Source of the DNA: Squalus acanthias
Taxonomy: Eukaryota
Direction: 5' to 3'
Length of the DNA stretch: 64,000 bases
NCBI GenBank assembly: GCA_030390025.1
Contig: CM059432.1
Coordinates: 96,474,001-96,538,000, forward strand
Within the stretch, counting starts at the first letter, position 1. Every line of letters starts with the position of its first letter. The notes below the pieces were generated by a model that did not search any database, was not told where the DNA came from, and worked only from the letters and a program-made list of their open reading frames with translations. The translations under genes and the position numbers were made by a program. This document shows, piece after piece, positions 5,388 to 47,610 of this stretch.

Positions 5388-6286
5388 AAAGTGTCTAAAT
5401 GGGGTAGGGGAGCAGTGGGATCGGGGGTACAGATACACAAATCACTAAAAGGCGCAACGCAGGTTAATAAGGCCATAAAAATTGCAAACAAAGCACTGGG
5501 GTTCATTTCTAGAAGGATAAAAGTTATGTTAAACTTGTATAGAATCTTGGTTAGACCACACTTGGAGTACTGAGAACAGTTCTGGTCTCAATATTATAAA
5601 AAGGATATAGAGGCACAGGAGGTGCAAAAAAGATTTACTAGAATTATACCAGAACTGAGAGGTTATACCTATCTGGAAAGATTGAACAGGCTGGGTCTCT
5701 TTTCTCTAGAAAAGAGAAGACTGAGGGGTGACCTGATAGAGATCTTTAAGATTATGAAAGGGTTTGATAAGGTAGATGTAGAGAAGATGTTTCCACTTGT
5801 GGTGGAGACCAAAACTGGGGGGCCATAAATATAAGACTATCACTAATAAATCCAATAGGGAATTCAGGAGAAATGTTGTTACCCAGAAAGTAGTTAGAAT
5901 GTGGAACTCGCTACTACATGGAGGAGTTCAGGCGACTAACATGGATGCATTTAAGGGGAAGCTAGACAAACACATGAGGGAAAAAGGAATAGAAGGATAT
6001 GTTGATGGACTAAGATGAAGAAGGGTGGGAGAAGGCTCGTGTGGAGCATAAACACCGACATGGACCAGTTGGGCCGAATGGCCTGTTTCTGTGCTGTAAA
6101 TACTATGTAATGCTATGTACTATGCGCTATGTATCATGTAATGATTCTTGATATGAAATCTCTTTAAGTTGCCAAGGACTATACCCTGGTTTAATAGAGT
6201 TTTCAAGTAGGATTATTTTGTGTGGCAAACAGGCAAAACCTGCTCTAAAATCTTATCAGGTAGTTCACTCGGAGAACGCTCATTAT

Positions 6287-7270
6287 GGGGGGGGGAAATT
6301 CGTTAGGTTAGCGCCTCCCGTTAGTGCCTGCTGAGGGCGGTAACACGGCGCTGATGCAGTAGCACCAGGGCAAGGCGAATCCAGCGCCGCATGGCAAATC
6401 CGCGCCCCCCCCCCCTCCATTGCGCCGCCAGTAGGAGGTACCGCCGGGGACTTCAACGCCAGGCAGATCGTGACGTCAGTGAGTGTGTAACGCCCGATAT
6501 GCAAAATTCATTGTTGCCACTTATCTTTGTGCCTTGAGCAGACAGCGACATGGAGAGCAGGCGCACAGCTGATGGAAGCCGGCTCCAGCGACATTATTTA
6601 AAGGCATCAGCATTAATCACTTGCAGCTGTCAGAGCAGGTTAGTTTCAGTGGCTTCTTGTCAGTTTCAGCTAGTGGATCACTTTGTATGAGTAATTTCAA
6701 GCTTCTTTTTATCAGCAGTGTTCTGGCAACTGCAAAGTGCCTTCATTTATTGTTCAAAGATTCAAACTGCTACACTTAGCAACATTAATGGGGGCTGTAC
6801 TGGCATGCCTCCTCACCCTCCAGGATCTACGGTGGAGGGAGCGTAAGCAGCCAGAAATACGGGAACATATGTGCAGAGGGATGAGGAGGGACACCAGGGC
6901 TTTCTCCAGGAGGCCTTACCCTCCGAGGGTATTCCGACAGCACGTCTCCAACCTTCAATTAAGCGAGGATCAGTGTATTAGAAGGCTCTGCATCACCCAG
7001 GTGGTGGTCACAGAACTCTGCCACCTCCTCCAAACAGACCTCCAGCTTCAGGATGACTTAAACCCCAGATCCCTTTTGCTTACCACATGCCCATCATACC
7101 ATCCCTGTGTCATGCTATATCACAGCGTCCTCCTGGGTGCAAAGGTAAAATGAGAGAGACTCCAAAATATTGCAAACCCCATTAATAAATTTATTACTAA
7201 ACATATCATACATATCATATTCATTCTAATAACTAATGACCTTTGTGCCTGACATAGTTGAATGGCTGTC
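6287..7270 (+). mobile_element. PIF/Harbinger element fragment with the N-terminus of a HARBI1-like transposase
   Basis: GC-rich terminus ggggggaaatt...gcgcctcccgttag is the reverse complement of the right end of 56203-56867. ORF 6737-7153 contains RRPYPPRVFRQHVSNLQLSEDQCIRRLCITQVVVTELCHLLQTDLQ, typical of the Harbinger transposase N-terminal region. No DDE core is present. Confidence 0.65.
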
Positions 7271-7271
7271 A

Positions 7272-7810
7272 TTGTGTGAAAGGCGTGAGATGTGGGTGTG
7301 AGGTGCTGTTCCTCGAGCTCCACTCCCACTCTGACCTTTCCATCCTCGGCCTCTTATACTGTCCCAGCAAAGCTCAACGTTAGCTCGAGGAACAGCAATT
7401 AGGCACTTTACAGCCTCTGGACTCAACATCGAGTTCAACAATTTCAAACCATAACCTCTGCCCCTATTTTTTTTCACATGGCAGCTATTGATGATCTGCC
7501 ATTCTCATTTACACCTCATCTAGACTCATCTTTTGTTTCTTAACTTGTCCCATTACCATCTCCTTTTGCCTTGCACCATCATCCCTTTTGTCAGTTACTC
7601 TCTCCTGTCTTCCACCCTATCACAGACCTTCCCTTTTGTTCTTTCCTCCCCTCCTCCCTTTCCCTGCCCCTACACTTGCTTAAAAATCTGTTATATCTCT
7701 AACTTTTTCCAGTTCTGACGAAGGGTCATCGACCTGAAACGTTAACTCTGTATCTCTCTCCACAGATGCTGCCTGACCTGCTGAGTATTTCCAGCATTTT
7801 GATTTTATTT
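7272..7810 (+). mobile_element. Penelope-like element 3' end (GIY-YIG C-terminal remnant + pseudo-LTR)
   Basis: ...ctcgaggaacagc...ttaggcactttacagcctctggactcaacatcgagttcaacaatttc, followed by the pLTR ending cacagatgctgcctgacctgctgagtatttccagcatttt. Same family as 28522-29217. Confidence 0.85.
7711..7747 (+). ncRNA. Minimal type I hammerhead ribozyme in a Penelope pLTR
   Basis: AGTT-CTGACGA-ag-GGTC-atc-GACC-t-GAAACGTT-AACT: intact CUGANGA and GAAA cores, stem II GGTC/GACC, stem I AGTT/AACT, palindromic ACGT stem III. Confidence 0.8.
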
Positions 7811-7874
7811 TAAAAACTTAGCAACGTTTAGCAAAAAAAAAGTCTAAAAAGTTAGAGGCTGCTTCTGACCCTTC

Positions 7875-8535
7875 AACAACAACAACAACAACAATGTGCA
7901 TTTATATAGCACCTTTAACATAGTAAAACGTCCCCAGGCACTTCACAGCAGCATTAGCAAATAAAATTTGACATCAAGCTACATAAGTAGACATGCAGAT
8001 CCAGGCCGACTTGAACAACCTACCACCAACCCATCTCAAATCTAGGAGGCCATTTTGGACTGTCGCCGAAGCCGTTCAGCGATCTCCCCTCAGCCTTGCT
8101 GACCGATGGCAAAATGCTTGGAAGAACTGTGACATATGAAATGGATTCCTTATAGAGGACCCCACAGTATCAACCTGAAGGATCAAATCTTCCTCGCAAA
8201 CAGTGGACAACCATCAACCGCCTCAGAACCGCTCATGGTAGATGCTGCCACCTTCTCCATAGATGGAAGATTAAAGCATCCCCATCACTCGACTGTGGAT
8301 CTCCTAATCAGACCCTGGAGCACATCATTGAGCACTGCCCTCGGAGGAAATTCACAGGCAGCCTACAAGATATCCACGCTGTTACATCGGAAGCTTTGAC
8401 TTGGATATCCAACTTAGATATTGACATTCGATTTGCTTTGCTACTACCAGACCAAAGAAGAAGAAGAAGTAGATATTAGAACAGATCACCAAAAGCTCGG
8501 TCAAAGGAGTGTCTTAAAAGAGGAGGCAGAGAGGT
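7875..8535 (-). mobile_element. L2 LINE 3' end, interrupted by the retroposon at 7993-8468
   Basis: (caa)n tail followed by tgcatttatatagcacctttaac...aaaatttgaca. Resumes at ~8473 as tattagaacagatcaccaaaagctcggtcaaag. Confidence 0.7.
7993..8468 (+). mobile_element. 5'-truncated non-LTR retrotransposon 3' end, RTE-like, with (GAA)n tail
   Basis: Encodes an 'LKSRRPFW' remnant and ends gaccaaagaagaagaagaag. Flanked by agtagaca / agtagata (TSD-like). Confidence 0.55.
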
Positions 8536-9286
8536 TTCCAGACTTTAGTAGAATAAGTACCTCATATAAATCTAATCTCCACATAAAAACGCTGAGTGTA
8601 AAGAACTAATGGTAATTTCCTTTGCCTGAATTAATAGAAGGGGGTTTCGAGATCCGGAATGTGGATAGGGAACTTTATATCACCGCCCTGCATTGCCCAC
8701 TGGGCATCACATTATATAGGATTGGAAATGTGCATTGTTAATAATAGTTCACTTTTGCTTGTTTCTCTTTTACCAACTCGAAACAAACACCAGCTGTGGA
8801 CAGTGCCTATTCGGGGCTGCATTTACTATTGCGGGAGTACTGCAGAATATCTCGCTTTAACGCGAAAGAAATTTAAAATAAAAACGGTTTCCCACTCGTT
8901 TATTTTTTCCGGCGATTTTCTTCGTTTTAAATCTCGTCCTTCAATCGATTTTGTGGGGAAACAGGTGCAAACGGGCTTTGAAAGCATCAGGAACATACAC
9001 GATTCTGTATCCCGTCCGCATCAATACACCAAGCACAGTGACAGAGAAAGGAAAGGGGGACCATGTATCATGAAACAAAAACAGTCGATATAAAGTGATT
9101 GCAAGAATGTATACAAGTAAGGGAAAGAAGCACAAAAGTTAAAAAAAACAAGTATCAAAGCGATGTAAAACTGATTGGAAGGTGTAATTCAGAGAGAAGA
9201 TCTGGAGTAAGAAGAACAGTGGAGAGGTAGAAGCAAAAAGAATGCGATAAACTGCTATACAATGGAAGGAGCCGGAGGAAACCTAC

Positions 9287-9950
9287 CTGGGTGTGGGGTC
9301 AGGTTCTCCTCACTGATGAAGGTGCCGGGCAGAAGTTGGCACTCCCACGGGCTCCGGGGGCACTGGGATTGTCTTGCCTCGACCCAGTGGTGCCGCTGGT
9401 CTCCCGGGTTGTTCTGCTCTCGGTGCCGCAGCGCTCAGACTGAGAGCCGGAGCCGGGCAGCTCCCGGCTCAGTCTCCCAGATGTTTCATCCCAATCCACG
9501 TGGTCCCATGGGAAGCAAATTACATCTGCTTCCCCCCTTTTAAAAAAGTAACTCAGGAAGTCCCGGGTTTCTGTATTATCAGCCTCGCCAATATGACATT
9601 CTTCCTCACACTTCCAGCTGCCTTTGAACACTTGCTCCAGTTGTCCAAGGTTAATGTGTATCTCTCACATCCCAGGATCTCGGGTCCGCCCGCAGCGCAC
9701 CGGCAGCAATGCGGCGACTGTCACCCAAGAAAACTTTGGAGCAGTTTTATGTTGCCTGAAAACAAATCTCACACGCACCACCTGCAATCTGGCGAGTCTG
9801 CCCGGCGCAGGCTACTGCTCTCTAAGTCGGGACAGAGATACAGAGACCAGAAATGCAGTGATCGCCCAGTAACGGAGAAAAGTTCTCTTCCTGCAGCACT
9901 GCTCCCTGCAATGTTCACACGTCGGCTGTTAACATCACTCAGGCGGAACG
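9287..9950 (-). promoter_or_regulatory. CpG-rich putative promoter and non-coding first exon of an unidentified host gene transcribed leftwards
   Basis: Non-repetitive, locally CpG/GC-rich stretch ending in a strong donor CAG|GTAGGT (exon end 9287, intron from 9286). No ATG-initiated frame reaches the donor. The 5' boundary is approximate. Confidence 0.5.
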
Positions 9951-34295: not shown

Positions 34296-37200
34296 GTGCC
34301 CATTCACGTGTGTACTTTGGCTGCCGCTCTGGACCCAAGCCGTTCATTTTTCCCCACATTTTCTCCCCCCTTTTCCTTTTCTCTCTACCCCTCCCTGACT
34401 GCGCTCTCCTGTCGTCGTGCCTCCTTTCATCTCTCCACTCTCGGATACTCTGCCCGCCCAAATCCCTACCCCAATCATTCATTCCTCTTCGACCTTCCCA
34501 CTCTCTTACCATCGTCCCAGGCTTGATTCCCTCTTAGATAAGCCTACAGCTTCCCTCTGTTCCTCTCTTGGCATCTTACGAAGGGCCAATCGAGGCACTC
34601 ATCGCTGCCTCCTTAAGAGCAGCAACCCCAACTATCCCGTTCTACTCTCTCGCCAACCTTCCTGCCCAGCATGCCCACTGGGGGCTAATCTTGCCAATCT
34701 CCTCCCCGTCCAACTCTCCCCTCCCAGCGCTGACCCTGTGGACGCTAGCAGTGGGTCAGCCATCACTGACCTTTTCCGCATCTCCCTCCAGAATGTCCGT
34801 TCACTTGCGAACAAGGCTCTTGCCACACATGAGCTTATTGTGGATGATTGCATCGACATCATGGCCCTGACAGAAACTTGGTTGAGGGGTGATGACACCT
34901 TATCCTTAAATGAAGCCTCCCCGCCTGGCTATACCTTCCACCACTTGCCCTGCTCAAACCGCCATGGTGGCGGTGTGGCTCTCATCACCAAATCTCACCT
35001 TGGTCTGTCCCCCTACTCCTCCAACACTTTCTGCTCCTTTGAGCATCTCACCTTATTCCACCCCCTCACCTCTCATTTAAAATTCTCGTTCTCTACCGCC
35101 CACCCAAGTACCAAAAATATTTTATTACCGAGATATCTTCACTGCTTTCCTCCCTCAGCCTCTGCACTGAGCAAATTCTCATCCTCGGTGATTTCAACCT
35201 CCATCTCAATTCATCATGCTCTCTCTCCTCTGAGTTCACTGCCCTCCTATCCTCCCTTAATCTCTCTCTCCATGTAAACTCCCCAACCCATATTCACGGC
35301 CACTCCCTCGACCTTGCCAGCTCTTGTGGCCTCGCTACTCCCATCGTGTCAAACGCAGATAAGGCCACCCCCCTTCCCTCCACCCCCCAACACTACTTCC
35401 TTCTTTGCCCTCCCCTGAAAAAAACTTTCCCAACTCTCTTACAACTGCACTTACGAAATCCCAACTGTCCAGCCTCTGGCCCTCCATTCATCACGACATT
35501 TCTGCAGCTACCGATCTGCTCAACCACACCCTCACCACCACCTTTGATGCCCTAGTCCCTACTAAAACAATTACTCTCTCTCACCCTGTCCATTTCCCCT
35601 GGTATGGCCTTAATTTTCACTACCTTAAGTCCAAGGGACACAGATGTGAATGGATATGGCGGACAATTGGTTTAGCCATTCACCGCCAGATCTGGCTGGA
35701 CCACATAAAGCATTATCGGGTCCTGCTCTCGTCTGCCAAAATTGCTCACTATTCTAGAATCATTCTGGAATGCAAAGATAAACCTCAGCTTTTATTTTCC
35801 ACTGCTAATCGTCTTCTTAAACCCCTCTCCCCTGTCTCCTCCACCCTCACCTCCGACAACAAGTGTAAGGAGCTCATGGACTTCATTGTCTCTAAGATTG
35901 AGACCATCCGTTCAGCTGCCTCTGCCACTTCCCTTCCTTTTCCAAGCCCACCGAGCCAAACCTCCTCTAAGGTTCCCCCCGCCCTAGCACTGAACTCACA
36001 TCTTTCTCCAGTTTCTCTCCGATCTCCCCTCATGACCTCTCCGCGCTCATCTTGTCCATGAGACCCACTTCCTCTCCCTTGACCCTAGTCCCACCAAACT
36101 GCTGACCACCCAACTTCCTTTTCTGGCTCCCATGTTAGCTGACATTGTTAACGGTTCTCTCTCCTCAGGTACTGTCCCCCTCTCCCTCAAATCTGCCGTC
36201 ATCACCCCTCTCAAAAAAACAACCCTTGACCCCTCTGTACTTGCAAACTACCGCCCCATCTCCAACCTCCCTTTCCTCTCCAAAGTCCTTGAACGTGTTG
36301 TCGCCTCCCAAATCCGTGCCCATCTTTCCCACAACTCCATGTTTGAATCCTTCCAAACAGGTTTCCGCCCTTGCCACAGTACCGAAATGGCTCTTGTCAA
36401 AGTCACAAATGACATCCTTTGTGACTGTGACAAAGGTAAACTGTTCCTCCTCGTCCTTCTTGACTTGTCTGAAGCCTTTGACACGGTTGACCACTCCATC
36501 CTTCTCCAACGCCTCTCCACTGTCGTCCAGCTGGGTGGGACAGCACTCGCCTGGTTCCATTCTTATCTATCTAATCGTAGCCAGAGAATCACCTGCAACG
36601 GCTTCTCTTCCGCTCCCGCATCATTACCTCTGGTGTCCCCCAAGGATCTATCCTTGGCCCCCTCCTATTTCTCATCTACATGCTGCCCCTTGGCGACATC
36701 ATCCAAAAACACAGCATCAGTTTCCACATGTACGCTGACGACACCCAGCTCTACCTCACCACCACCTCTCTCGACTCCTCCACGGTCTCTAAATTGTCAG
36801 ACTGCTTGTCCGACATCCAGCTCTGGATGAGCAGAAATTTTCTCCAATTAAATATTGGGAAGACCGAAGCCATTGTTTTCGGTCCCCGCCACAAACTCCG
36901 TTTCCTAGCCACTGACTCCATCTCTCTCCCTAACATCTGTCTGATGCTGAACCAGACTGTTCGCAACCTTGGTGTTATATTTGACCCTGAAATGAGCTTC
37001 CGACATATCCAAGACCGCCTATTTTGACCTCCGTAACATTGCCCATCTCCGCCCTTGCCTTAGCTCATCCGCTGCTGAAACCCTCATCCATCCCTTTGTT
37101 ACCTCTAGACTTGACTATTCCAATGCACTCCTGGCTGGCCTCCCATGTTCAGCCCTACGTAAATTTGAGGTCATCCAAAACTCGCTGCCCATGTCCTAAC

Positions 37201-37567
37201 TCGCACCAAGTCCCGTTCACCCATCACCCCAGTGCTCGCTGACCTACATTGGTTCCCGGTTAAGCAATGCCTCGATTTTAAAGTTCTGATCCTTGTTTTC
37301 AAATCCCTCCATGGCCTCGCCCCTCCCTATCTCTGTAATCTCCTCCAGCCCCACAACCCCCCAAGATATCTGCGCTCCTCTAATTCTGCCCACTTGAGCA
37401 TCCCTGATTATAATCGCTCAACCATTGGTGGCCGTGCCTTCTGTTACCTAGGTCCTAAGCTCTGGAATTCCCTGCCTAAACCTCTCCGCCTCTCTACCTC
37501 TCTTTCCTCCTTTAAGACACTCCTTAAAACCTACCTCTTTGACCAAGCTTTTGGTCACCTGCCCTAA
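34296..37567 (+). mobile_element. Near-complete L2 LINE ORF2 (AP endonuclease + RT), frameshifted, 3' UTR missing
   Basis: LQNVRSL..ALTETWL..GGGVALI (endonuclease); NYRPISNLPFLSKVLE, LLDLSEAFDTVDH, HMYADDTQLY, LHWFPV, FKTLLKTYLF (L2 RT and C-terminus). Confidence 0.93.
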
Positions 37568-37607
37568 TGAAGTTATCCACTTTGGTAGGAAAAATAGAAA
37601 AGCAGTG

Positions 37608-38085
37608 TGAAGTAAGATATTAAAAAATTGGAAATAACAAAGGCAAGACGGGCATGACTCATTTGCAGAGAAGCAGGCCTATAACGAGATGAACAGAAGC
37701 AGGTCTATAACGAGATGAACAGAAGCAAGCCTATAACGAGACTAACAGAAAACGGCTAGCACATTTCTGGAAACCACATCATGGGCTAGCACAACTTTGT
37801 GTGGAAATTATGTGTTATCTTTGTATAAACCACCACCCTCGGATAATGAGTAAATGTGTAACTTTTAAAATTAATTGGATCTCCGTAAGGGTAAGGCAGC
37901 AATGTTGTATAAATGTGTGTGCTTTGATTAGCTCGGCGGAGTTGGACTTACGCAGCGACGTAGGAAGTTCTCCCCAGGCCTGAATAAACCGTTGTGACTT
38001 CAATTACTTGGTCTGTCTTTCCTTCAACAAGCCAGTAGCGTCGACCTTGTATATCACTTGGTCCGCACTTTGGGGGCTTACTTCA
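37608..38085 (+). repeat. ERV 5' LTR
   Basis: TGAAGTAAG...CTTACTTCA 9-bp inverted termini; three ~26-bp U3 tandem repeats (agaagcaggcctataacgagatgaac); TATAAA ~37908; AATAAA 37983. Confidence 0.95.
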
Positions 38086-38087
38086 AT

Positions 38088-38105
38088 TGGCGACGAGGAT
38101 GGGAT
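38088..38105 (+). promoter_or_regulatory. Primer-binding site, tRNA-Ser(GCU)
   Basis: TGGCGACGAGGATGGGAT, the 18-nt complement of the vertebrate tRNA-Ser(GCU) 3' end as recalled (ATCCCATCCTCGTCG-CCA). Major splice donor CGG|GTGAGT at 38151. Confidence 0.85.
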
Positions 38106-38713
38106 ACGCGATCTGAACAAAAACTCTCGGACAGCGATAACCTAAGACGGGTGAGTACGCTTAAAATTACCACCTGTAAAATTAGAGGTTAATCGCTGGT
38201 GAGACGTTAAGTAAGATCGACGTACAAAAGAACTATAAAAAGAAAGACACCTTTAATTGAAGGCGGTTAAAACTGCCGGACTGCGGTACCGGAAAACAAG
38301 GGTTTAGAAACCCGGTAGGCCCACAAGGTGCGGCTCTTAAGAAGTAGTTAAACGGATTGTTTTAACACTGGGTGAAGGACGAGTCCTTCTGGCCGAAAAG
38401 TAGACTAAGCGCGTGACTGCTTAAAGTATAAGGAGATCCGTTGTGTCAATAAAGTATAAAGTTGAACTGAGAATCACGGAGTGATCGACTCGGACAAGGG
38501 TGGTGCCTGTCTCAAACACCTAGCCTGAGCCTGAATTAAGAGGATGTAGTCCCACGTGACGGCCAGGATCAAGTAGGCGTAGGGACTACAAAGCACCACA
38601 GGATCGTGATCACGTGACAAGTAAGGGTGTATAAAATATTGAATAAAGTATAGGAGTACTCGAAAACTTTGGATATGACTAGTAAAGAGGATAAGGAACC
38701 CTGGGGAGACCCA

Positions 38714-39485
38714 GGGCTGAATTTTGTCTTGGGGTCGGGTTGGGGTCGTGTAATCCGCATTTCGTGTTTCCCCCTCGACTCCAGATTAATGTGGATGCCT
38801 GATGCAATTTTCACTTAATTGGGCAATTGAGTTGGAGCATGTGGGAACCCATGAACTAATTAGTGTTTTCAGTCTGAAAGGCGCCTCTGATGATGTCATC
38901 ATTGCTGACTGTCTAGTCTCAGAGACTGTTGGTGACAGAGGACCTGCCTGGCTTTTGATGTGAGTGGACCTGGATGCAAAAATGCGGGGGGGGGGTGTGT
39001 TGGGGAGAGAGAGAGAGAGAGAGAGAGAGATAATTTTTTTGCCTAGCAAGTCCTCCCAGGCAGTCTTTGAAGACATTCAATGCAGCAGCATCAGAGGCGA
39101 CGTTCAGACCTAATACTACTACTACTACCTTCACCACATCTCTGTTGTAATAGTGGACCTGCAGCCGATAGTCAGCTATCCACTTGTGCTCCCGCCAGGT
39201 TTCACTGGAGTGTTTCACACCAGGCGTGCTTCACGTCAGAAGAGGGTTAAACTAGCTACAGCATTTCAAAATGGCATTACAGAGCCAATTTAGAGCTTGT
39301 TAAGGGCTTTAATGGCCTCTCCCGCCTCTTGAAGGCGGGACGGAGTCGGGAACCCCGCGACTGATTATGTCAAAATTGCGTGGAGGCGGGATGGAGTCGG
39401 GATGGGCTCGGAAACCCCGACCCTGCAAATTTAACCCCCCACACGCCTCCAAACCCGACTCCATGGGTCATTCAAAATCCAGCCC
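38714..39485. mobile_element. PIF/Harbinger-type MITE inserted in gag
   Basis: TIRs gggctgaatttt / aaaatccagccc. TSD CCA (38711-38713, 39486-39488). Same family as 57404-58002. Confidence 0.85.
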
Positions 39486-40078
39486 CCAGAGTCTGTAACA
39501 CGATATGCTTATGACAAGAATAAAAAACTAATTAAGAAAATGAGGAAGGCAGGGTGGAACCGAGAGGATAAACTAGACATACAAAGGGACTGGTGGATGA
39601 AACAAACCAAATATAAATTGGAAAAAGCGTACATTATCGTGGCGGCACGTTACCATCGGGAATGTACGCTCCAGCGCGGAGTCCTTAAGACATATCCAGT
39701 AGCTGCAACCGCCCCAAACCCGGGTGACTCCCGGGAAAAGGTATACCCAGAACTGCCCTGGGGGGGCCGACCGGCTGTCCTCCCCCGTATTCAGGACACC
39801 AGTCGGTGGCCCTGGAGCCTGTTCCGATGGCACCAGTGACACTGCAATATAGGCCGGCAATCCCCACGGTCCCGGCAGTTCCCGCGGTGGGGGGAAATCC
39901 GGCTGTTCCGGCAGTACCGAGCAGGCCGGCCACCGCAACGATGACCTACACACCGTTAAGCCTGCAGGACCGGGTGATTCTCCTCAACGAATTGCCAACC
40001 TTAAAACACCGCCAGAATAATCAGACATTCTGGCACAAACTGAGCGAAGTACGCATAAACCATGCCCTACATAGTATA

Positions 40079-40678
40079 TGATGCGGAGATGCCGGTGTTG
40101 GACTGGGGTGGACAAAATTGAGAGGTCGCACAACACCAGGTTATAGTCCAACAGTTTTATTTGAAATCACAAGCTTTCGGAGCTATCGATTGCTCCTTCC
40201 TCAGGTGAAGTAAATTAGATACAGAATCGCCAAAGCATATATAGATAGAAAACAAAGCATGTGTACCTTACAATTGCAGACCACTAAATTAAATCATCCT
40301 GACTATCTGCCGAGGTGTGATAAAGTTAATTAAGTCAGCCAGGAAGGTACCACATCAAAGACATAGCAAGATACAACTGAGACAATGAGGTGTAGTCGCA
40401 GGGGTTCTAACGTGTCAAAAGCTGCCGTCTGTATGTAAAACGAAAAGCTTTAAAATTTTTACATTTTTACTGGGAAAATTTTTACTTTTTTACTGGGAAT
40501 CACATCTGTGAACAAGCTAACGACGACTCGAATCCGGATCACGTCATGTATCGTGACATAAACCCAAGATCCCGATTGAGACCGTCTTCATGAGTGCGGA
40601 ACTTGGCTATCAGTTTCTGCTCGATGATTTTGCGTTGTCGTGTGTTTCTAAGGTTGCCTTGGAGAACGCTTACCCGCA
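40079..40678 (-). mobile_element. 5'-truncated Penelope-like element of a second family inserted in gag
   Basis: 11-bp TSD TACATAGTATA. The minus strand encodes a GIY-YIG C-terminus RVSVLQGNLRNTRQRKIIEQKLIAKFRTHEDGLNRDLGFMSRY, followed by a pLTR. Confidence 0.85.
40168..40207 (-). ncRNA. Minimal type I hammerhead ribozyme (second Penelope family)
   Basis: Minus strand: CAC-CTGAGGA-a-GGAGC-aatcgata-GCTCC-GAAAGCTT-GTG. Cores intact, stem II GGAGC/GCTCC, stem I CAC/GTG, palindromic AGCT stem III. Confidence 0.7.
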
Positions 40679-41607
40679 TACATAGTATAGACATCGATCA
40701 ATTGGTACGAGCTAAATGTCCCGAGGAACAGTGGAGATTAGTGCAGGGCAACCACGGAAATGGCCAGTGGGCCGCAAATACAGGACAGACAATCCAACAA
40801 TTAAACACTGAGTTCGACCAATTCAAGGCCGCTGTGGAAGCAGCAATGGGACAGGCCCTCGTAAATTGGGCAGCTATAAGCGGAATCACACAAAAAAAGG
40901 GAGAAAGCGCCATCGATTATGGAAAACGAAAGTGGTCCGCCTTTGAGGGTAACTTTGGGATCCCAGGCCCCTTAAACAAAAACAACGCTTGTTTTCTGCA
41001 AACATTTAAACAGGGACTAAGTCCAATGCACCAGAATGCAATAAAAATGGGGCTAGTGGTCCACAATAATTGGGATGATTTAATACAGTGGGCGTGCGAA
41101 GTAGATAATCAGGCCCAAGAACAAGCCAAACCTAAAATAGCTGCTCTAAGGACGGATAGCGACAATGAAGATGCATTAAGTGTGGCGGCATGCTTCGGTT
41201 GCGGACAGGAGGGCCACATGAAAAGGGATTGCCCGAGGCAACAGAACAAGGGGGGTAATCAGACATCTCAGCAAAAGGCTTCCTGTCATAACTGTGGAAA
41301 ACCAGGGCATAGGAAACAACAATGTTGGAATAAAGGAGGAGGAAGGGAAGGTCAGGGACCTAGACAGGGAGGAAAACCGGGGTCAAGTATTGGAAGGTCA
41401 GAGAATAATGAGGAAAACGTGGCAAAACTGATCAAGAAGGGAATGCAAGACTGGGAGGATGACAGGGAAAGAGAAGAAAGGAAGAGGAGAAAGAGTAGGA
41501 AGTATAAGAGAGACGATTCCTCAGACACCTCCGACGAGGAAGACATAGTGGAGCTGACAAGGAAAATGGAAAAACTGGTCAAACAAATAAAAAAGGGCAA
41601 CGCCTGA

Positions 41608-43167
41608 CAGGTAGCGGCCCTCGGAGACCCGGCAAAGGGATACCCTAGAATGTTTATTGAGGCACTGGTAGGGGGCCGACAGTGCAGAATGCTCATAGAC
41701 ACCGGGGCAGCAATATCTCTAACAAACGTACCCTTGCCGCTAACCAAGAAAAATATTTTTATATCCGGGATAGGGGGAGTAAAAATTAAAGCATGGAAAA
41801 GTGAGACAGTATTACTAGAATTAGGAAAAATCATTATACCTACATGTTTCTGGATCTGTGAAAATACTGAGGGGACCATCCTGGGTATAGACATACTAAG
41901 GGAAGTGGGAGTTTTAATAGACCCCAAGCAGGATAAGTTGCTAAGGCCTGATAACCATAAGGAAGAGAGACATAAATCAAAGGGATCCAAGACAGCATGC
42001 GCCATCAGCGCTCTCTGAATAATAGACCCCAAATGGGACGAAAAGGGAGGATGGGGGGAAATTTGCCACCGATTCCCCGAACTATGGGCCAAACACAAGC
42101 AGGACTGCGGACTGGTCAAGATAAACCCAGTCAGAGTCCCCGGGCCAACCCACCGACCCCATAAACAGTATCCCCTAAAAATGGAGGCCCAGACAGCCAT
42201 ACGGAGTATAGTATTGGAACTAGTTAAACAAGGAATTTTGCGAGAAACAGTGTCCGGCACTAATTCTCCAGTGTGGCCCGTAAAGAAACCTGATGCGTCA
42301 TATCGACTTACAATCGATTACACAGCCTTAAATAAAGTGACCCCAAAGGAATATCCAATTGTAGCAAGCCCAGCTACTATCTTTAACGGTTTAAAACCAG
42401 AACACAAAATATTCACCGTGTTAGACATCGCAAACGGATTCTGGTCCATTCCCCTGCATGAAGAATCACAAGAAAAATTCGCCTTTACAATAGGCGGCAA
42501 ACAGTATACATGGACACGGGTCCCACAAGGATTCCATAACAGTCCAGCCATTTTTCACCGCCACATGGCCAGAGCTCTTGAAGACCTAGACTTAGAGGGT
42601 GAAAATAGTACCCTCTTACAATACGTGGATGACCTCCTAATAGCATCAGAAACGAAAGAGGGACACAAGGGGGCCCTGACAAAGGTCTTTTCAGCCCTAC
42701 GGGATGCGGGTTTTAAGGCAAACCCAGCCAAAGCCCAGGTAGGAAAATTGGAAGTCATATACCTGGGGTATAGGGTCAGTATGGGAAAAAGGGCTATGCC
42801 AGAGGAAAGGAAGGAGGCAATCCGCCAAATGCCAAGGCCCATAAACGTGAGAGGAGTACGTCAGGTACTCGGTCTCTTTAACTTTAGCCGGAACTTTATA
42901 GAAGGCTTCTCACACGTGGCCGCGCCCCTGTATGAATCAACAAAGTGGGGTAGGGCAGCAGAAGAACCCATCGAGTGGACATCCACTCAGGAGGAAGCTT
43001 TTACCAAACTTAAACAAGCCCTGACCGCCGCCCCCGTGTTAGGATTACCTGACCAAGAGAGACCCTATCACATATTCTGTCACAATCATGACGGACACTA
43101 TAGCGCCGTAGTAGCCCAGGAGCACGGAGGAAACATGAGATCGGTGGCCTACTATTCCACTAGATGA
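41608..43167 (+). pseudogene. pol: ERV protease + reverse transcriptase + tether/connection domain (one internal stop at 42016-42018)
   Basis: LIDTGA and ILGID (aspartic protease); NSPVWPVKKPD, YRLTIDY, VLDIANGFWSIP, WTRVPQGFHNSP, QYVDDLLI (RT); LTAAPVLGLPD...VAYYS. All in the gag frame. Confidence 0.93.
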
Positions 43168-43239
43168 TCCCCCATCGTGGCAGTGTAAAACCGATAGGGG
43201 AGTCCCAGTCCCATTAATACCCCTTGAGTATAATATTGT

Positions 43240-44377
43240 TAAATTACATCGAGACATACCAGAACCTGAGCTGAAAATTTGGGAAGAGAAGGGAGTAATG
43301 CTATCCAGAGATAAGGTCTGGAGAAAGGAGGGACGGGTCTGTGCACCCGAGTGTATCCAACAGGAACTAATGAGGTTGTATCATGGACAAGCCCATACAG
43401 GGGCCAGCCGAATGATAAATAACATAGGCCAATGCTGGTGGTGGCCCGGACTATCAAGCAGTGTAAGGAAGTATTGTAAGGATTGCCACATTTGTGCGCA
43501 ATGTAACACCGGAAAACCAGTAAAGGTAAAATGGGGTAGACAGCCGAGACCCAAGGGACCCTGGGAGAAACTACAAATAGACTTTACCGGACCATTAACC
43601 AAAAGCAAAGGAAAAACCTACTGTCTGGTAATAATCGACCAATTCACAAGGTGGGTGGAAGCTTTCGCCACCCGAAACTGTACCGCCAGTACCGTGGCCC
43701 GGATCTTGGCAGAAGAAATAATACCCCGGTGGGGAGTCCCATTACAAATAGATTCAGATAATGGAACACACTTTACCGGAAAGGTAATGAAAGAGGCTTG
43801 CGTAAGGCAGAAATTTCACATACCTTACCATCCCGAAAGTTCAGGAATGGTGGAACAAATGAATCGGACCTTAAAACGATCTCTCACAAAGGCAATTGTG
43901 GAGACGGGGCAGGGATGGGCGGAACTGATACCCACGATCCTAATGAGACTAAGGGCCACACCAAATAGCACCACCGGACTGACCCCTTTTGAATTAATGA
44001 CGGGACGGGCAATGGCGCTTCCCGAAGGAGTAGTGACCGGAGGGGAAGATGTGGGACCTTTAAAAGACAGAATCAGAAGGTTCATAAAGCAATTATGTGC
44101 GGAACTGCACGGGCTGAGACAGGAGGTTAGAGACCAGCAGATAATCAAGGATCTGGAAAGGGATACCAAGGAACAAAAGAAAGTTATACCTGGGGTGGGA
44201 AGTCAGGTAATGTCCAGAATTATTCCAATAAAACCTGGGTTATGGCCCCAGTGGGAAGGACCCTATTTGGTATTAATGACCATCGACACTTGTGCGTGTA
44301 TAGACTTGCACGGCACTGGAAAAGGAAGATGGAAACACTGGACACAATTAAAATTATACAAAGAACCCGATGAGTAA
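43240..44377 (+). pseudogene. pol: ERV integrase (open frame; RNase H deleted upstream)
   Basis: HHCC (H GQA H ... CHIC), LQIDF, IDQFTRWVEAF, IDSDNGTHFT, YHPESSGMVEQMN (D,D,E), TGLTPFE, WEGPY. Confidence 0.93.
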
Positions 44378-44800
44378 CCCAGAAATCATATTGCACAAGG
44401 AAAGCAAGGATTATTGGCATAAAGTCCAAAAGGAGCCGGACGACCTTGTATTCGCGTGAATAGGATCCTGTTGCATTATGATAGTAATATTCTTCGTGGT
44501 CTGTATGTTTCAATAGATCTGGGAAACGGGCCAGGAGAGAAGAGACTGGAACAGGATTGAGTCAATAAGGATGAACAAAATAAACTAATCACACAACTCT
44601 CTAAAAAAATTACAGAAAACGGAACACTTAATGAAACCAATGCCTGCTAACAAACAAAGGTTACAAGATGAGGAAGTGGAAGGCATTCTACTAATTTAAT
44701 TGGATGTATCTGCATGGCTTGAATAATTGTAGGTTCTGTATGCGTCTATCAAGGAGTGTGTATCCGGGTACGGGGTAACCCAAGGCCCGAGATAGTAGAA
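44370..44800 (+). pseudogene. env: Internally deleted env remnant
   Basis: ATG overlapping the pol end, hydrophobic signal-like IGSCCIMIVIFFVVCMF, then heptad-like KDEQNKLITQLSKKITENGTLNETN with N-glycosylation sequons, and a Trp-containing membrane-proximal remnant. Several stops. Confidence 0.5.
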
Positions 44801-45456
44801 GTAGTAAGAATGGAATAATTAACTGCTGGTGACGACCAGCCTTGTATTTCCACAGGGCAAATTAGAAGAACGACGGAAGAAGGGACGGCCGACAACAAGG
44901 AACAAGATGATCAAGTATCTGCTTATATATGGCCTTATAGGCCTAGGCATACTCCATAATGTAGAAAGGATGCCTAAAACTAAGAAAGGAGGATGAGGAG
45001 CTTCTCGCAGGAGATCCCTCAGCCACTCTTATGAGAATGGTGTAAGACCCGATCTATAGCCCTAAAATTACAAAGAATGAATTGGACACGATAATTAATA
45101 ACCAGGCCGGCCAACCGTAAGACAGGAGTGGCAGAAACAGGATTGGTGAGTGATGACAGTCTCGAAAGGACACGTCACGCACCCACCGGGGGATGGAGGA
45201 TGAGCTCGAACCAAAAGCTCAAACCATTGATGCAGGGCTCTGGGGCCCCGGGAATGGCAACATAAGAACAAAGACAAAAAAAAAGACCACATATACCGCG
45301 TGGGGTGAAACCGGCTCATAAGTTGGTTTATGTAATACCCATGTATAACCTAGACTGGTAGAAGGCCAGAGAGTGCACGCTCGGGCAAACACCAGGCAAC
45401 AGGAATACATGTTGACCTGTATTGGAACAGTTGTCCAATAGGTCAAAAGGGGGGAC

Positions 45457-45933
45457 TGAAGTAAGATATTAAAAAATTGGAAATAACAAAGGCAAGACGG
45501 GCATGACTCATTTGCAGAGAAGCAGGCCTATAATGAGATGAACAGAAGCAGGCCTATAACGAGATGAACAGAAGCAGGCCTATAACGAGACTAACAGAAA
45601 ACGGCTAGCACAGTTCTGGAAACCACATCATGGGCTAGCACAACTTGTGTGTAAATTATGTGTTATCTTTGTATAAACCACCACCCTCGGATAATGAGTA
45701 AATGTGTAACTTTTAAAATTAATTGGATCTCCGTAAGGGTAAGGCAGCAATGTTGTATAAATATGTGTGCTTTGATTAGCTTGGCGGAGTTGGACTTACG
45801 CAGCGACGTAAGAGGTTCTCCCCAGGCATGAATAAACCGTTGTGACTTCAATTACTTGGTCTGTCTTTCCTTCAACAAGCCAGTAGCGTTGACCTTGTAT
45901 ATCACTTGATCCGCACTTTGGGGGCTTACTTCG
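45457..45933 (+). repeat. ERV 3' LTR
   Basis: Direct repeat of 37608-38085, roughly 14 differences by manual count. Terminal CA mutated to CG. Confidence 0.95.
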
Positions 45934-46186
45934 CAGTGTATTTTTTAAATGGTGAGAGATTGGGAAATGTTGGTGTTCCGAGGGACCTGGGTGTCCTTGT
46001 ACACGAATCACTGAAAGTTAACATGCAGGTACAGCAAGCAATTAGAAAAGCAAATGGTATGTTGACCTTAATTACAAGAGGATTTGAGTATAAGAGTAAA
46101 GACATCATACTGCAATTATATAGGGCTCTGGTGAGACCACACCTGGAGTATTGTGTACAGTTTTGGTCTCCTTATCTAAGGAAGGA

Positions 46187-47610
46187 TCTTCTTAGGCAGG
46201 CAGTCCCTCGGAACCGAGGATGACTTGCTTCCACATTAAAAATGAGTTCGCAGGTGACTGATGAGTCCAATGCGAGACCTACAGTCTCTGTCACAGGTGG
46301 GGCAGACGATGGTTGAAGGGACAGGTGGGTGGGCTGCTTGGGTTGACATGCGCTCCTTGCGCTGCCTGCGCTTGGCTTCCGCTTGCTCCCGGCGAAGAGA
46401 CTCGTGGTGTTCGGCGCCTTCCCAGATGCTTCTCCTCCACTTTGTGCGGTCTTGGGCCAGGGATTCCCAGGTGTCGGTGGGGATGTTACACTTTTTCAAG
46501 GAGGCTTTGAGGGTGTCCTTGAAGCATTTCCTCTGCCCACCTGGGGCTCTCTTGACGTGCCGGAGCTCCGAGTAGAGTGCTTGTTTTGGGAGTCTCGTAT
46601 CGGGCATGCGGACAATGTGACCCGTCCATCGGAGCTGATCAAGCGTGGTCAAAGCTTCGATGCTGGGGATGTTGGCCTGAGCAAGAATACTGACGTTGGT
46701 GTGCCTATCCTGCCAATGGATTTGCAGGATCTTGCGGAGGCAGCATTGGTGGTACCTCTCCAGTGCTTTGAGATGCCTGCTGTACATGGTCCATGTCTCT
46801 GAGGCATACAGCAGGGCGGGTATCACTGCTGCTCTGTAGACCATGAGCTTAGTGCCGGGTTTGAGGTCCTGGTCTTCAAACACTCTCTTCCTCAAGCGAC
46901 CGAAGGCTGCACTGGCACACTGAAGGCGGTGTTGGACTTCGTCATCGACGTCTGCCCTTGTTGACAGTAGGCTCCCGAGGTATGGAAAGTGGTCCACGTT
47001 GTCCAAGATCTTGTCGTGGATTTTGATAATCGGGGAGCAGTACTGTATGGCGGGGGCAGGTTGGTAGAGGACCTTTGTCTTACGGATGTTTAGTGTAAGG
47101 CCCATGCTCTCGTACGCTTCGGTGAAGGTGTTGACGATGGTTTGGAGTTCGACCTCCGAGTGAGCGCAGACGCAAGCGTCGTCTGCATACTGTAATTCGA
47201 CGACAGAGGATGGGACGACCTTGGATCTGGACTGGAGGCGACGGAGGTTGAACAATTTCCCGTTTGTTCTGTAAGTTAGCTCCACTCCAGTGGGCAGCTT
47301 ACTGAGGGTGAGATGGAGCATTGCAGCAAGGAAGATCGAGAAGAGCGTTGGTGCGATGACACAGCCTTGCTTGACCCCGGTTCGTACGTGAATTGGATCT
47401 GTGGTGGAACCGTTGGTCAGGATCACGGCTTGCATGTCATCGTGAAGCTGGCGGAGGCTAGTGAAAACTTTTGAGGGCAGCCGAATTTGAGGAGGACACT
47501 CCATAATCCCTCACGGTTGACAGTGTCGAAGGCCTTTGTGAGATCAAAGAAGGCCATGTACAGCGGTTGGTGCTGTTCCCTGCATTTCTCTTGTAATTGA
47601 CATGCGGTGA
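46187..47610 (-). mobile_element. 5'-truncated RTE-clade LINE
   Basis: TGVKQGCVIAP, LQYADD, FPYLGS, LLYASETW, QLRWTGHIVRM..RLPK, C-terminal CPTCDRDCRSRIGLISH. Short (gaa) tail at 46187. Confidence 0.93.

Follow-up and report, generated by a model that had tools for sequence, protein, structure and literature searches.

A decayed Squalus acanthias provirus from a multi-copy family with a gamma-type envelope and a Pol most likely related to SnRV

We analysed a 64,000-nucleotide stretch of the Squalus acanthias genome (contig CM059432.1, positions 96,474,001 to 96,538,000; hereafter the window), which contains an endogenous retrovirus (ERV) on the + strand at 37608-45933, with a long terminal repeat (LTR) at each end. 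The element is very probably a decayed provirus of a multi-copy family that combines a gamma-type envelope with a Pol that lies among the retroviruses but belongs neither to class I or class II nor to the foamy viruses. The group called SnRV-like or clade Huo is the most likely place for this Pol, in the company of Rh_ty_ERV4 and Ch_my_ERV12. The clade label is not firm. A preliminary description, made from the letters of the locus, had proposed a lokiretrovirus-like lineage, sister to other retroviruses. Our results argue against that proposal: the element is not a lokiretrovirus and is a new member of a loosely classified, already known group. The family joins an ancestral-type reverse transcriptase (RT) to a class I-like RNase H, integrase (IN) and envelope.

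Phylogenetic position of the family

Reference rows for the trees came from IMG/VR and protein searches, with foamy and class II rows fetched by motif. The SnRV row was recognised by its published length and its RT, and the Xen-1 row by its RT. The rows taken as WDSV and SSSV were labelled partly by length. In place of the published lokiretrovirus consensus sets we used two fish proteins that show the loki motifs. The 124 RT rows were reduced to 80 and then by hand to 59, near-duplicates and partial rows being removed.

In the resulting RT tree (LG+C20), a 100/98 branch parted all retroviruses, the element included, from the loki-motif proteins. Class I plus class II (100/99) and the foamy viruses (100/100) formed groups that both excluded the element, the gypsy rows made up a separate 100/99 group, and the published order of gypsy, loki and retroviruses was reproduced. 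The element itself grouped at 99/91 with proteins from sharks and cyprinids and with unnamed ones. Its nearest named RT is from Heterodontus, and the top RT cluster includes a member from Mustelus; when the RT by itself was used to scan viral contigs, no match came up. Approximately unbiased (AU) tests rejected a grouping of the element with loki rows (p=0.0008 for RT, p=3e-6 for Pol) and with epsilon-like rows (p=3e-10 for RT, 7e-5 for Pol). On RT, a single clade with SnRV was not rejected (p=0.13; p=0.28).

A lokiretrovirus, or a sister of the lokiretroviruses, carrying an F-like Env would have brought that group into cartilaginous fish, and we consider it very improbable. Lokiretroviruses do share with the element the NGFW motif in RT and a tether plus RNase H (PMC7947760), and sister families of the element carry a non-gamma Env with weak Fusion_gly matches, described below. 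The tether between RT and RNase H is, however, not diagnostic because it is common to all retroviruses. Apart from the AU results and the position of the RT, the element has PQG and LQYVDD where lokiretroviruses have PFG and IYVDD (PMC7947760). Its IN (in a tree with no CGIN1 row) and its RNase H (by similarity) are not loki-like, its family has a gamma-type Env in place of an F-like one, and it differs from those lokiretroviruses that have an smc gene (PMC7947760).

No genus of the International Committee on Taxonomy of Viruses suits the element, as the preliminary description had supposed, and the RT did not nest in the epsilonretroviruses. An epsilonretrovirus-like, class I element with an odd RT motif would agree with the best RT match in the PDB, which was murine leukaemia virus (MLV; 235 bits, against 199 for foamy virus), and with the class I-like RNase H, IN and Env. 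We nonetheless judge it improbable on the rows sampled, given that crown class I excludes the element at 100/99 and that the AU tests reject joining it to epsilon-like rows. A Ty3/Gypsy retrotransposon with a captured env can be practically dismissed. Some related proteins bear the automatic name 'Gypsy retrotransposon integrase-like', but sister copies have a second RNase H beyond the tether, the gypsy rows stand apart in the RT tree, and the RT scored 123 bits against Ty3. Spumaviruses differ as well, since the element lies outside the foamy clade, has two zinc knuckles and keeps pol in frame; fish foamy-like ERVs were compared by eye only.

A more substantial alternative is that the family split off early from the lineage leading to class I (gamma plus epsilon) and kept an ancestral-type RT, 'clade Huo' then being a grade. 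We hold this to be plausible without preferring it. Joined trees of RT, RNase H and IN (41 and 29 rows, LG+G4, no class II rows) attached the family to the class I stem at 98/99 and 95/100, and on the same data a grouping of the family with SnRV was rejected (p=0.014). An integrase tree (67 rows) grouped the family with class I at 98/90 and 96/96. By similarity, the RNase H shares 42-52% identity with class I, against 38% with SnRV and 24-30% with loki and foamy sequences. In addition, the trees contain no ERV-L, HERV-S, fish foamy-like ERVs, Odin or published Xu sequences, and the position of Rh_ty_ERV4 and Ch_my_ERV12 at the end of a block between class II and foamy viruses, which we read as clade Huo, was taken from the row order in figure text with no visible bracket (PMC6001957). 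These points all weigh against a firm SnRV-like label. The family also fits the one or two zinc knuckles, the GPY/F motif and the missing dUTPase given for ERV1 (Table 1 of PMC4299795).

On the other side, a clade with SnRV is not rejected by the RT data on their own, and joined trees can mislead because RNase H and IN are known to be swapped between lineages. The 5-bp target-site duplication (TSD) at the locus differs from the 4-bp one of class I/ERV1 and resembles that of ERV3 and ERV4 (PMC4299795). Measured against the criteria for ERV3/ERV-L and ERV4 (no knuckle, no GPY/F, 5-bp TSD), the TSD fits, whereas knuckles and GPY are present (PMC4299795). ERVs related to SnRV and Ovex1 remain unclassified and may have knuckles and GPY/F (PMC4299795). 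We keep the SnRV-like placement as the most likely one.

Envelope genes of the family and its sister families

We read env at 15 loci (16 stretches) of the family. Five contained a frame of 444-445 codons, and the others held broken pieces of the same gene. The 444-codon Env of sister copies has CWVC at 46, RSKR at 250, ISD at 312, CX6CC at 328 and a transmembrane helix. It matched Pfam TLV_coat (E 4e-18) with no Fusion_gly match, its best PDB matches in a sequence search were syncytins, and the nearest named Envs come from sharks and rays (Heptranchias, Scyliorhinus, Pristiophorus and Hemitrygon). Judged by sequence, the Env of the family is an ordinary gamma-type one. Full-length relatives thus carry the gamma-type transmembrane subunit (TM), with CX6CC, ISD and TLV_coat, that the preliminary description had named as contrary to its proposal. 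An envelope survey of anamniotes reports gamma-type Env in six cartilaginous fish, with SnRV-related Pol among the carriers (10.1101/2021.11.23.469661).

Within the stretches fetched, no gamma-type Env match was found in the closest sister family (RT 80-82% identical) or in several families at 66-70%. Another, non-gamma Env is present in these families and shows 32-38% likeness from one to another; three of nine pieces gave weak Pfam matches, Fusion_gly being matched at E 0.01 and 0.058 and Baculo_F at E 0.0026. PDB sequence searches with this Env found no match, its predicted structure (9 rows) was unusable (predicted local distance difference test score, pLDDT, 36.3) and left an F-like fold unconfirmed, and profile comparison of the SnRV Env with the non-gamma shark Envs was weak (probability 4%). 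Structure prediction of Gag from a single sequence was likewise unusable (pLDDT 43.7). The F-like envelope that had been anticipated in relatives is therefore absent from the element's own family and finds weak support, at most, in sister families.

The RT tree unites the family with its closest, non-gamma-Env sister at 100/99, and therefore at least two changes of envelope type are implied. It is likely that these relatives swapped envelope types; a closest sister with a different envelope class would be a clean case for studying envelope exchange. Non-gamma Envs were read at 11 loci of sister families with the same RT type, of which the closest family also retains the small open reading frame (ORF) described next.

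A small open reading frame directly after pol

A small ORF with a hydrophobic stretch adjoins the pol stop, and an ORF of this kind, 48-76 codons long, is kept in four families. It runs for 48 codons in 13 of the 16 other env-type loci; the window copy has a premature stop at its codon 30. Families with RT identities of 80-82%, 67% and 61% have homologues of 65-100 codons in the same position. The homologues align gap-free over 48 codons, and the proportion of nonsynonymous differences was lower than that of synonymous differences (pN < pS) in 15 of 15 pairs, with pS near saturation. Among the frames compared, only that of the small ORF is stop-free in all four families, and a search with one homologue returned 139 stop-free matches out of 150. 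Each family has a separate env start downstream of the small ORF, together with a separate acceptor wherever one was visible. Against a coding role, no more than two of the six family pairs showed a significant third-position excess. A homologue was not found in several other sister families examined.

Taken together, these observations suggest that the small ORF is probably a real gene. It likely encodes a single-pass accessory membrane protein acting in the extracellular phase; by analogy, one might guess at a part in releasing virus or in antagonising the host. Were it a real gene, an accessory membrane protein would be added to the fish retroviruses. The ORF gave no credible Pfam match and no Atlas match, and narrow literature searches returned no account of a small ORF following pol in ERVs of sharks or fish, although a prior description is possible.

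Two further arrangements were seen behind pol. One sister family has, at six loci, an unrelated ORF of 57-87 codons that immediately follows the pol stop and has Gly as its second residue and a hydrophobic stretch; its longer form adds a downstream basic patch, and it loosely resembles the FAST/sORF2 proteins of PMC11952523. In some copies of a sister family, the small ORF is in frame with integrase, giving a 413-codon frame.

Family copies and an env-less subfamily

An RT search yielded 144 scored candidates. No fewer than 71 reached 95% identity, 34 of them within a 1187-codon pro-pol frame. The older subfamily, which includes the window copy, is env-bearing, and 16 loci match the env query at 93% or more. 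A younger subfamily has no env: LTR pairs are 99.8-100% identical (3 of 3 pairs), and eight of the nine copies examined are identical across 701 nt. In all six young env-less loci a frameshift leaves the small ORF 29 codons long and devoid of its hydrophobic stretch. The structure of the copies suggests that the env-bearing form spread by infection, and that a later form lacking env and the membrane stretch of the small ORF may have multiplied inside germ cells. Loss of env is established as favouring proliferation (cited in 10.1101/2021.11.23.469661). The young subfamily may reflect recent activity in the germ line of a genome that evolves slowly. Ten env-less loci also show an altered U3, tandem 68-nt leader repeats and many open pro-pol frames.

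More tentatively, and with some doubt, the family could be read as part of an unnamed fish-and-reptile lineage at the base of class I, with an undescribed small membrane gene after pol, an exchange of whole gamma-type and F-like envelopes among close relatives that kept this gene, and an env-less offshoot still copying in the shark germ line.

Organisation and decay of the provirus

The order LTR, primer-binding site (PBS, Ser), gag, UGA, pro-pol, small ORF, env, polypurine tract and LTR was read from the sequence (Table 1). A Pfam profile search of the element recovered two knuckles, protease, RT, a partial tether and integrase.

Table 1 Features of the provirus and its flanks, in window positions
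Feature	Positions	Strand	Remarks
Left TSD copy	37603..37607		CAGTG (5 bp), within LINE RT fragment
5' LTR	37608..38085	+	TG...CA; TATA-like at 37908, AATAAA at 37983
Primer-binding site	38088..38105	+	Complementary to tRNA-Ser(GCU)
Predicted major splice donor	38148..38156	+	Sequence match
gag	38675..41607	+	Interrupted by two inserts; UGA stop 41605-41607
Non-viral insert, MITE-like (presumed)	38715..39484		Short imperfect inverted ends; sister copies without it
Non-viral repeat insert	40079..40678		11-bp duplication on flanks; sister copies without it
Protease	41608..42018	+	DTG at 41698; terminated by stop seen in 3/30 copies only
RT and first part of tether	42019..43183	+	Stop 43165-43167; deletion joint 43177-43183
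Integrase	43184..44377	+	HHCC, DDE core, GPY motif at 44252
Small ORF	44370..44516	+	Hydrophobic stretch; premature stop at codon 30 here
Predicted env splice acceptor	44836..44855	+	Sequence match
env remnant	44907..45045	+	First 25 codons and extreme C-terminus; ~1.2 kb gone near 44982
Polypurine tract	45445..45455	+	
3' LTR	45457..45933	+	
Right TSD copy	45934..45938		

Nearly all features named in the preliminary description were recovered, among them the env remnant and the 5-bp TSD. The provirus splits an RT fragment of a long interspersed nuclear element (LINE), whose reading resumes beyond the insertion, and CAGTG stands on both flanks. The PBS complements the 3' end of genomic tRNA genes: a pattern for the tRNA-Ser(GCT) end had 249 genome-wide matches, and ARAGORN called Ser(GCT) at all four loci scanned. 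Pfam zf-CCHC (E 3.8e-9) marks the pair of CCHC knuckles, at 41191-41232 and 41284-41325, and the RT motifs LDIANGFWS, PQGFHNSP and YVDD are found at 42421, 42523 and 42622. Gag measures about 515 codons in insert-free copies, with late-domain-like motifs YPEL and PPPY and a motif resembling the major homology region at 40891. The tether domain reported previously is present, though incomplete here, with RT_RNaseH_2 (Pfam) covered over positions 1-63 of 100.

Gag and pro-pol share one frame split by a UGA, as had been described, and this stop is kept in 29 of 30 copies and is thus a trait of the family. From related retroviruses (gamma- and epsilon-type viruses and XtERV-S), tRNA-Ser would prime reverse transcription, and Gag-Pol would arise through occasional readthrough by suppression of the UGA. 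Env would be made from a spliced mRNA that joins donor 38151 to acceptor 44855, then cleaved at the furin site, with its surface subunit and TM joined by a CWVC-CX6CC disulfide. The donor previously noted just after the PBS stands as a sequence match, GTGAGT at 38151, as does the acceptor-like site at 44855; no spliced read was seen. The 80 nt folded after the UGA gave no stable structure (z -0.1), in a test that also misses the MLV signal. Contigs of four runs, guessed to be RNA, contained no donor-to-acceptor joint. The same contigs cover the element and bear the deletions of the env-less subfamily, and they cover a control stretch mainly at repeats; they support no conclusion on expression or splicing.

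Compared with sister copies, this provirus has two foreign inserts in gag and extra stops, and has lost ~780 nt (the rest of the tether and RNase H) and ~1.2 kb of env. A second stop, between protease and RT, is a lesion because it is found in only 3 of 30 copies. The RNase H deletion is bounded by 7-bp direct repeats. The gag inserts, the second stop, both deletions and the small ORF had gone unnoticed in the preliminary description. The copy is dead and cannot replicate because of the two gag inserts, the pol stops and the deletion of RNase H and most of env. Its layout, its integration with a 5-bp duplication and its subsequent decay can be read directly from the locus.

The LTRs differ by 12 mismatches over 476 aligned positions, and the 3' LTR ends in CG in place of CA. 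The Kimura two-parameter divergence of 0.026 corresponds to ~58 My if the rate of PMC4422223 is assumed and to ~6 My at a tenfold faster rate, and an LTR-based age of the provirus is not reliable.

Several side observations were made. The RNase H deletion is also readable with GT..AG ends, and one contig (run X5) has the same joint, with only 23 letters on one side. LINE RT remnants flank the provirus on either side, at 36036-37567 and 46236-47510 of the window. Another copy of the family has, inside its env, a ~4.2-kb element with a Myb/SANT domain, presumably Harbinger-like. Large tandem arrays with a period of ~1,623 nt at ~38.9-41.9 Mb of contig C26 match the 3' end of tRNA-Ser(GCT).

Comparison with known systems

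The closest published relatives are elements from other hosts and of another family than the element described here, matched by eye. Rh_ty_ERV4 of the whale shark has LDIANGFWS, PQGFHNSP, LQYVDD and long RT stretches in common with the element; the end of a first knuckle and a whole second knuckle are visible, the second being close to that of the element, its protease has a similar start, and an in-frame TGA precedes pro (PMC6001957). The turtle element Ch_my_ERV12 has the same RT motifs and a very similar RT, and another from turtle, Pe_si_ERV12, has LDVANGFWS, PQGYHGSP and LQYVDD (PMC6001957). In S. acanthias, all six sister-family loci with gag/pro frames open to the junction have two knuckles, TGA and LDIANGFW. 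The feature set of the element is thus already known from Rh_ty_ERV4 and others, and is not new.

CmiERV lineage I of the elephant shark has a Ser-type PBS that differs from the one in the element. Its scaffold 2 copy resembles the element, by eye, in LDISNGFWS, PQGFHNSP and an in-frame gag-TGA-pro, and it likewise has a donor just past the PBS and a short gamma-type env with an N-terminal CxxC, ISD and CX6CC (PMC4422223). Unlike the element, it has one knuckle, FVDD, another PBS and an RNase H of different appearance, and between pol and env no small ORF is apparent by eye; the lineage is reported to cluster with SnRV (PMC4422223). SnRV itself has an NGFW-type RT (LDISNGFWS; 43% identical to that of the element), gag and pol in one frame and a fish host, but differs in its UAG junction, single knuckle and PBS, and its IN groups elsewhere. 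Its Env, encoded at 6131-9532 of the SnRV record, with 1134 codons and no CX6CC, is unrelated to that of the element's family.

XtERV-S of Xenopus shares with the element the Ser PBS and the gag/pol UGA, and carries on a non-class-I pol a gamma-type Env of 441 aa with an N-terminal CWIC, a furin site near 250 and CX6CC (PMC8278194). It differs in having no zinc knuckle, YIDD and a dUTPase, and is related to ERV-L (PMC8278194). The contrasts with known genera that the preliminary description had considered unusual are therefore found elsewhere: LDISNGFWS in SnRV, two knuckles in Xen-1, and the Ser PBS with UGA in XtERV-S (PMC8278194). As for a separate shark lineage, the family does lie outside the recognised genera, but its group is not confined to sharks and had already been sampled in the whale shark and in turtles (PMC6001957). 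The family is a well-preserved shark member of a lineage known mostly from fragments, and is useful for retrovirus classification.

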